A DNA stretch of 64,000 nt. Source: a virus. The position numbers were made by a program, and so were the translations under genes. Positions within the stretch are counted from its first letter, which is position 1. Each line of letters opens with the position of its first letter. The DNA is taken from the IMG/VR virus record IMGVR_UViG_3300031539_000004, positions 64,696-128,695 of that record; one strand, 5' to 3'. The notes beneath the pieces are model-generated. The model was not told the DNA's origin. It did not search any database and was given only the letters and a program-made list of their open reading frames with translations. This document shows, piece after piece, positions 12,347-12,869 of this stretch.

Positions 12347-12576
12347 CGGGCGATCCAGTCGCCGTTGACCAGCTCGCAGCCGGCCTGCTCGAGCCTCGCC
12401 CGGAGCCGTTCTTGGAGCGCTCGGATCCGGGTGGCGTTGCGGGTGGCGTAGTCGAAGGCATCAGGGTCGGACGCTTCGACCGCTCGGGTGGCGTTGATTT
12501 CGAAGGCGTGGGCGGTGAGCTCGGCGAGCACTTCGCATTCGGCGGCGTCGTGGATGGTGAGGGTGACGGTCTTCAC
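12343..12576 (-). CDS. Hypothetical protein (MKTVTLTI...)
   Basis: GTG start overlapping upstream stop. Confidence 0.65.
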   Translation of the reverse strand: MKTVTLTIHDAAECEVLAELTAHAFEINATRAVEASDPDAFDYATRNATRIRALQERLRARLEQAGCELVNGDWIAR

Positions 12577-12869
12577 GGGCTGGCCTCGAGGTCGGGTGGC
12601 TTGAGGTAGGTGATCCCGCCGCGGGGCGCTGAGATGACGGGGAACAGATCCTCGACGGTGGGGATCAGGTCGTAGTTGACCATGTCGCGGTACCGTTCGG
12701 CGGCGAGCGCGTCGGCCAGGGCGGCGGCCGGCGAGCCGGTCCAGAACGCCTTCTGTCGCCACCTCGGCGGGTCGGGGTCGTCGCGTCGGCGGTTGCGGTC
12801 GGGGCCGAGGTCGTAGAAGGGGGCGATCGGCGCGCAGTAGCCGCCCGAGGCGGTCAGGTGGTCGGTCAT
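12573..12869 (-). CDS. Small protein resembling a fragment of the major capsid protein
   Basis: LTASGGYCAPIAPFYDL and PTVEDLFPVISAPRGGITYLKPPDL match MCP 58709-58855; RBS GGAGGAC. Confidence 0.8.
   Translation of the reverse strand: MTDHLTASGGYCAPIAPFYDLGPDRNRRRDDPDPPRWRQKAFWTGSPAAALADALAAERYRDMVNYDLIPTVEDLFPVISAPRGGITYLKPPDLEASP

Follow-up and report, generated by a model that had tools for sequence, protein, structure and literature searches.

Why does a large phage carry, about 45 kb from its major capsid protein (MCP) gene and on the opposite strand, a small gene whose product reproduces a piece of that same MCP? The question arises from a 98-aa gene, P0001, at 12573..12869 (−) of a 64,000-nucleotide stretch of viral DNA (positions 64,696 to 128,695 of IMG/VR record IMGVR_UViG_3300031539_000004), to which we refer throughout as the window. 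An initial annotation had proposed that P0001 is an accessory gene encoding a fragment of the phage's own MCP, and BLASTP, a family collected with HMMER, hhalign, and a codon test all support that proposal. The sequence relationships suggest that the 98-aa product is probably a soluble capsid mimic, and as the leading reading we propose, more tentatively, that it may serve as a decoy for some host factor to which newly made capsid protein binds.

The contig from which the window derives is ~128 kb long, with a GC content of 69%, and carries terminase, portal, peptidase, and MCP genes; it has been binned into a 3.9-Mb MAG, with a weak link between bin and host. No tyrosine integrase was found on the contig. 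The relatives of its MCP belong to large actinophages, namely Arthrobacter phage Mimi, Actinomycetia phage DSL-LC01, and Gordonia phages GMA2 and Phendrix, and the carrier of P0001 is a large uncultured actinobacterial phage. Fragments identical to the gene region are present in several soil and marine-sediment metagenomes, no RNA dataset containing it was found, and contigs from four other runs over 11300-14200 contain only identical fragments of the gene and no variants. Elsewhere in the window, the ORF at 3-1406 has a paralogue with 37% identity over 435 residues and a shorter third match on the contig (G000:C2:41855-43381 (−) and 52790-54466 (+)), and a 1188-aa protein (47477-51043) joins an RNA-ligase-like part (phrog_2659, phrog_14859, residues ~177-329) to a phrog_859 part (residues 644-1165) of portal-associated or head-protein type.

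P0001 has a clear coding signature, with a codon-position GC of 0.68/0.55/0.93 at positions 1, 2, and 3 in a genome of 69% GC. The homologues of P0001 start at the same relative position; a 129-codon version beginning at an upstream GTG loses the codon-position GC signal. A ribosome-binding site, GGAGGA (12875..12880 (−)), lies 5 nt upstream of the ATG, which overlaps the stop codon of a Cys-rich 165-aa gene (12866..13363 (−)) in an ATGA, and the P0001 stop codon overlaps the GTG of a downstream 77-aa gene (12343..12576 (−)) in a GTGA. With these signals, P0001 is, as initially described, an intact gene translationally linked to its neighbors. Neither neighbor has a match in Pfam, PHROG, or PADLOC. 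The earlier placement of P0001 in an accessory region also agrees with its position, in a leftward-transcribed run of small unassigned genes that ends with a PD-(D/E)XK nuclease. At the head of this run is a promoter-like site (TTGATC-16-TATACT; 15720..15747 (−)), tentatively assigned from a scan for a sigma-70-like consensus that returned two sites where 0.2 were expected. The second sigma-70-like match (10439-10467 (−)) lies just past the end of the leftward block containing the mimic gene. From gene position only, we infer that the mimic is expressed early.

The MCP gene (57743..59686 (+)) codes for a 647-aa protein in which a fused N-terminal scaffold (delta) region is followed, from residue ~320, by an HK97 fold, as indicated by phrog_777, AlphaFold2, Foldseek, and VIA-align; its match to the phrog_777 major head protein has an E value of 9e-73. 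A BLASTP comparison of the 98-aa protein with the MCP (E 2e-8) aligns residues 3-21 with MCP 321-339 and residues 71-94 with MCP 348-371, with a gap of 41 residues between the two blocks. Together with hhalign and fold alignment, this defines MCP residues 321-371 (58703..58855 (+)) as the segment that is copied. Recounting by hand returned exactly the values given previously: identities of 11/17 and 13/25, blocks 7 aa apart in the MCP and 48 aa apart in the small protein, and MCP block coordinates of 58709-58855. The similarity is also significant in profile searches. The 98-aa protein by itself matches phrog_777 locally only, on residues 3-21 (E 1.5e-4), seven of the 15 family members match phrog_777 independently, and an hhalign comparison of the family profile with an alignment of 19 MCPs of the clade gives a probability of 98.2% and an E value of 3.9e-14, covering MCP 317-368. 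No significant similarity to P0001 was seen in the pentamer-like gene that follows the MCP gene. The 433-aa protein encoded immediately after the MCP (59792-61093, phrog_779) contains a ~115-residue domain (its residues 82-189) that is 40% identical to the product of G000:C2:3296-4501, which lies ~59 kb before the window start in the same phage.

The small protein can be divided into two copied motifs and an insert. Motif 1 (residues 3-21, 12807..12863 (−); L.A.GG.CAP.AP.YD), identified by BLASTP, phrog_777, and hhalign, copies MCP 321-339 at the start of the N-arm, and its residues G9, G10, C12, and P14 are invariant among the eight members aligned. Motif 2 (residues 70-94, 12588..12662 (−); P.vedLlP.iSAPRGGI.Y..PP), identified by BLASTP and hhalign, copies MCP 347-371, which comprises the last part of the N-arm together with the first E-loop strand; P77, A81, R83, and G84 are invariant among 15 members. 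Between them, in place of ~8 MCP residues, is a family-specific insert (residues 22-69, 12663..12806 (−)) with a conserved P.RW motif and two predicted helices, as seen in the AlphaFold2 model and when the short forms are aligned. Modeling of the P0001 monomer with AlphaFold2 gave a mean pLDDT of 66, with motif 1 disordered, helices at 37-44 and 47-65, and block pLDDT values of 60-83 over the insert. The model predicts that the two copied motifs are largely unfolded in P0001 alone, which fits a fragment that would take up order only when bound to a partner. With two short helices and disordered ends, the 98-aa protein has none of the spine helix, P-domain, and A-domain that make up a full HK97 fold.

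To which part of the capsid does the copied segment correspond? In its AlphaFold2 model, the MCP opens with an N-terminal coiled coil (15-80). A long linker, acidic and disordered, comes next, then a small folded region (246-319), an extended stretch modeled with low confidence (316-413), and finally the canonical core with a spine helix at 429-458. Foldseek and VIA-align match this model to HK97 and other HK97-fold capsids with Z scores up to 13.6, aligning MCP 344-631 with gp5 128-383 of the mature HK97 head, and MCP 261-631 with gp5 76-383 of Prohead I, in which the delta domain is still present. By extrapolation, MCP residue 320 would lie close to gp5 S104, the mature N-terminus, and MCP 321-371 would correspond roughly to gp5 104-155, the N-arm plus the first (rising) E-loop strand; this mapping is approximate because arm lengths vary among phages and AlphaFold is weak on arms, which it predicts poorly (10.1101/2022.09.09.507160). 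Both the MCP model and the HK97 alignment agree with the earlier placement of the blocks at the end of the scaffold region. In T4, before expansion, the arms lie disordered inside the prohead (10.1101/2022.09.09.507160; PMC9958956).

The copied blocks are among the most conserved parts of the capsid protein. Across six MCPs sharing only ~33% identity, they rank second and third in conservation among 25-residue windows, with identities of 0.52 and 0.50 against a mean of 0.33. The mimic retains most of the residues that are invariant in this MCP segment. Three others, V324, E350, and R364, are invariant in the MCP but not among the small proteins, and their freedom to vary suggests that the mimic is an imperfect epitope copy that would not need every MCP contact. 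Residue C12 of the small protein copies MCP C330. Eight cysteines are invariant or nearly so in the MCP clade (C330, C398, C403, C409, C417, C618, C632, and C646), a pattern that hints at disulfide cross-linking of the shell.

To find stand-alone homologues, we searched 1.84 billion representative proteins exhaustively with HMMER, which identified nine small relatives, and a profile search added five more; one HMMER match, P0006, was rejected as a false positive with cadherin repeats. The resulting ~14 homologues are rare, vary from 83 to 221 aa, and are all single-member clusters from phage contigs in metagenome assemblies, compared with at least 537 MCP clusters. They share L.A.GG.CAP.AP.YD at the N-terminus, a helical middle that varies (and in the short forms has P.RW and an A..AL helix), and LP..SAPRGGI.Y..PP at the C-terminus. 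P0001 has both motifs and the helical middle, is within the ~80-220 aa size range, and lies outside the head module, and so belongs to this family. Most homologues begin 2-4 residues before L.A.GG, and some have 8-30 extra N-terminal residues. The long forms (L004 7264-7812, L006 124-642, L007 163-684, and L072 1412-1933) have a common C-terminal tail, a basic stretch followed by RL.DARAVWRG.KDA..EAE..L..Y, with no match in Pfam or PHROGs. Two further proteins, P0009 (283 aa) and P0012 (179 aa), contain only the helical middle and motif 2, which in P0009 are fused behind a Cys-rich, zinc-finger-like region; this fusion and the long-form tails suggest that the copied motifs, motif 2 in particular, behave as a portable module. 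The Cys-rich part of P0009 was compared with the 165-aa gene upstream of P0001, and the two are unrelated.

The homologue loci are runs of small genes of no assigned function, and no neighbor gene conserved across them was found. Searching 50,697 phage records by tblastn with P0001 and P0005 identified no stand-alone homologue, P0005 giving only weak MCP matches; a word-based protein search with P0001 returned only P0001 itself, and IMG/VR yielded no match in pattern scans, whether P0001 or the family was used. A metagenome scan yielded one doubtful extra locus with motif 2 only, and Pfam, PADLOC, a PDB sequence search, and the ESM Atlas provided nothing useful. In the literature, we found no published description of stand-alone MCP-arm genes or of an MCP-fragment decoy.

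The family profile matches the MCP in all five cultured relatives and in 22 of the 23 relatives in IMG/VR, with both motifs present in most, indicating that the family derives from this MCP type. The family signatures APRGG and CAP.AP.YD agree with the metagenomic MCP clade to which this phage belongs, whereas the MCPs of the cultured phages have A[TDN]RGG and CAPLPVNYD instead. A second, stand-alone copy is missing from all 28 related phage records, one of which, at 171 kb, is rated 100% complete, and this absence marks the mimic as a rare, dispensable accessory gene.

Nucleotide comparisons indicate that the duplication is old. Codon-position identity between P0001 and the MCP segment is 0.63/0.81/0.53, and the same codon is used at 12 of the 24 identical residues. 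Between P0001 and its homologues, which have 37-47% protein identity, same-codon counts at identical residues are 16, 25, and 7, against 15.3, 24.6, and 8.7 expected at random from codon usage alone, and the family genes span 58-74% GC. Synonymous sites are thus saturated while the motifs are held, which argues for an old duplication under purifying selection. Nei-Gojobori dN/dS values among the homologues range from 0.23 to 0.89, and are unreliable at a GC3 of ~0.9, where synonymous change is compositionally locked; we therefore used the same-codon test instead. Neutral decay, the outcome that would have counted against a functional capsid fragment, was not borne out by this test, nor by the intact reading frames and invariant residues. 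Pieces of structural proteins can thus become accessory genes and be kept long-term.

What could such a gene do? Capsid protein ranks among the triggers to which bacterial immunity most commonly responds, and, to our knowledge, phages have so far been known to escape capsid sensing by capsid mutation, which is costly. If the mimic acts either as a decoy or as a weapon against rivals, then a dispensable gene that copies the conserved arm would be a different solution. On our reading, the mimic is a stand-alone paralogue of the MCP N-arm and first E-loop strand that arose long ago from an MCP of this phage clade, gaining the helical insert in place of a short N-arm helix, and we propose that it would be made from a nonstructural, probably early, leftward operon. 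It could then occupy the site of a host factor that recognizes the N-arm of new, unassembled MCP, a candidate being an immune sensor for capsid protein like CapRel, Lit/Gol-EF-Tu, or Avs7/Dsr1, and with the sensor preloaded or blocked, the late burst of MCP would not trigger it. A function in conflict suits the mimic gene better than one in assembly: it is optional, probably early, and keeps exactly the most constrained epitope of the capsid, whereas genes required for assembly should be core and reside in the head module. Neither the location of the mimic gene nor its absence from relatives matches that expectation.

The copied blocks are also of the kind that an immune sensor would be expected to target, being a conserved epitope. 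CapRel, a system common in Actinobacteria, is activated directly by MCP that has just been made (PMC9712102); for Gol/EF-Tu/Lit, a stretch of 29 residues within the first quarter of T4 gp23, where that protein is most conserved, is enough (PMC3014915); and Avs7 and Dsr1 sense MCP together with EF-Tu (10.64898/2026.01.04.697583). For the decoy proposal, we infer that the gene is expressed early and that its product binds a host sensor and antagonizes it; against it, a sensor-bound fragment might activate the sensor instead of blocking it. In the MAG, whose link to the host is weak, no Lit-type peptidase was found and only a housekeeping Rel, but the Lit search was likewise empty in the 14 control genomes. 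A broader version, in which several phage lineages keep small early copies of the most constrained, sensor-exposed piece of their MCP, here the N-arm, as decoys that would blind capsid-sensing immunity ahead of MCP synthesis, is doubtful, and if true would be a general, so far undescribed, principle of counter-defense. The two motifs, comprising ~45 residues, also provide a small defined reagent with which to fish for N-arm binders of unassembled MCP in actinobacteria.

The alternative that survives best, although we consider it unlikely, is that the mimic binds the MCP itself, filling the groove for a neighbor's N-arm or E-loop base, and modulates or blocks capsomer or shell assembly, either to delay assembly of its own phage or, Tab-like, as a weapon against coinfecting relatives. 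Retention of most invariant residues of the MCP segment would suit such binding, and phage-encoded blockers of rival virion assembly do exist (Tab, PMC10884400). However, every part of the MCP clade shares these motifs, which would leave the protein unable to distinguish self from rival, and no conserved neighbor that could be an antidote was seen at the homologue loci. A factor for self-assembly would be expected to be core and in the head module, yet the mimic is missing from 28 of 28 related records; for exclusion of relatives, the lack of an integrase gives no sign of lysogeny, where exclusion genes usually act. A complex prediction of P0001 with MCP 246-647 gave a score of 0.00, which counts neither for nor against binding.

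Distinctly less probable is a capsid-associated accessory protein, in which the N-arm contacts would serve as an address into or onto the shell for a minor or internal head protein, the long forms carrying an additional C-terminal effector tail. The conserved basic and helical tail (RL.DARAVWRG.KDA...) and the fusion of the motif 2 half to a Cys-rich domain are consistent with this, as is the copying by C12 of the invariant C330 in an MCP clade with eight conserved cysteines; the gene nonetheless lies on the opposite strand to the head module, ~45 kb away, and is absent from related phages. We give slightly less weight still to the improbable case that the mimic hijacks a host housekeeping factor engaged by the MCP arm, such as EF-Tu or a chaperone, as proposed for the T4 Gol region, and so retunes host translation or folding at an early stage of infection. 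Within gp23, the Gol region, which is its most conserved part, binds domains II and III of EF-Tu and inhibits the EF-Tu GTPase (PMC3014915), and EF-Tu is part of the Avs7-MCP complex (10.64898/2026.01.04.697583), but this MCP family differs from T4 gp23, a link of phrog_777-type MCPs to EF-Tu would be by analogy only, and the patchy distribution of the mimic suits a conflict gene better than a general takeover factor.

A substrate mimic or inhibitor of the prohead protease (53317-54288) is very improbable, and of the three functions suggested initially (a decoy, an inhibitor of rival capsid assembly, and a protease-substrate mimic) it is the least likely, because the copy starts at about the mature gp5 N-terminus and most members therefore lack residues upstream of the cleavage site. 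The start of the copy does adjoin the expected delta-domain cut, and some homologues extend the 8-30 residues further N-terminally, but most begin immediately before L.A.GG, and the best conserved motif, motif 2, lies ~30-50 residues downstream of the presumed MCP cleavage site. Finally, a neutral leftover of an old partial duplication might account for the rarity of the gene and its low-confidence monomer model, but is strongly disfavored and hardly credible given frames that are intact in all homologues examined, invariant residues that outlast synonymous saturation across 58-74% GC, and in P0001 itself a GC3 of 0.93, a ribosome-binding site, and overlapping start and stop codons.

The proposed decoy can be compared with several known systems. 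Its closest relatives in sequence, the phrog_777-type MCPs (the 'major capsid hexamer protein' of Mimi and those of GMA2, Phendrix, and DSL-LC01), share the N-arm/E-loop homology with GG.CAP and APRGGI; the mimic, however, has only ~45 homologous residues, lacks the P-domain, A-domain, spine helix, and delta domain, and is a 98-aa protein with its own 48-residue helical insert, encoded in a nonstructural region. Gol comprises gp23 residues ~93-122, and the region copied by the mimic is the equivalent part of the fold. Mature T4 gp23* begins with a 25-residue N-fist followed by the N-arm (PMC9958956), and for T4 Gol, the trigger of Lit with EF-Tu, and the MCP triggers of CapRel, Avs7, and Dsr1, a host factor recognizes a short, highly conserved piece near the mature MCP N-terminus (PMC3014915, PMC9712102). 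Gol, though, is part of an MCP, and of another MCP family, whereas the mimic is a separate gene.

A competitive mode of action has a parallel in SaPI1 CpmB, which competes through a C-terminal motif that it shares with the scaffold. CpmB is a small accessory protein competing with the 80alpha scaffolding protein for a site on the capsid protein (PMC5644958). CpmB is a scaffold mimic, is satellite-encoded, and changes capsid size; P0001, in contrast, is the phage's own gene, carried beside terminase, portal, and MCP, and has homology to the MCP arm and not to the scaffold region (1-320). Tab, from a Pseudomonas prophage, is also a phage accessory protein, and disturbs rival virion assembly, but its target is the tape measure and tail, it has not been reported to copy a virion protein, and it has an anti-Tab partner (PMC10884400), whereas no conserved partner gene was seen at the mimic homologue loci. 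Full-length MCP paralogues, such as the T4 gp24 vertex protein, actinophage hexamer/pentamer pairs, and capsid-forming PICI MCP homologues, are selected duplicates like the mimic; they are, however, complete shell-building HK97 folds, and the mimic is the arm only. It belongs with the molecular mimics and partial paralogues of virion proteins, which are already known as a kind.
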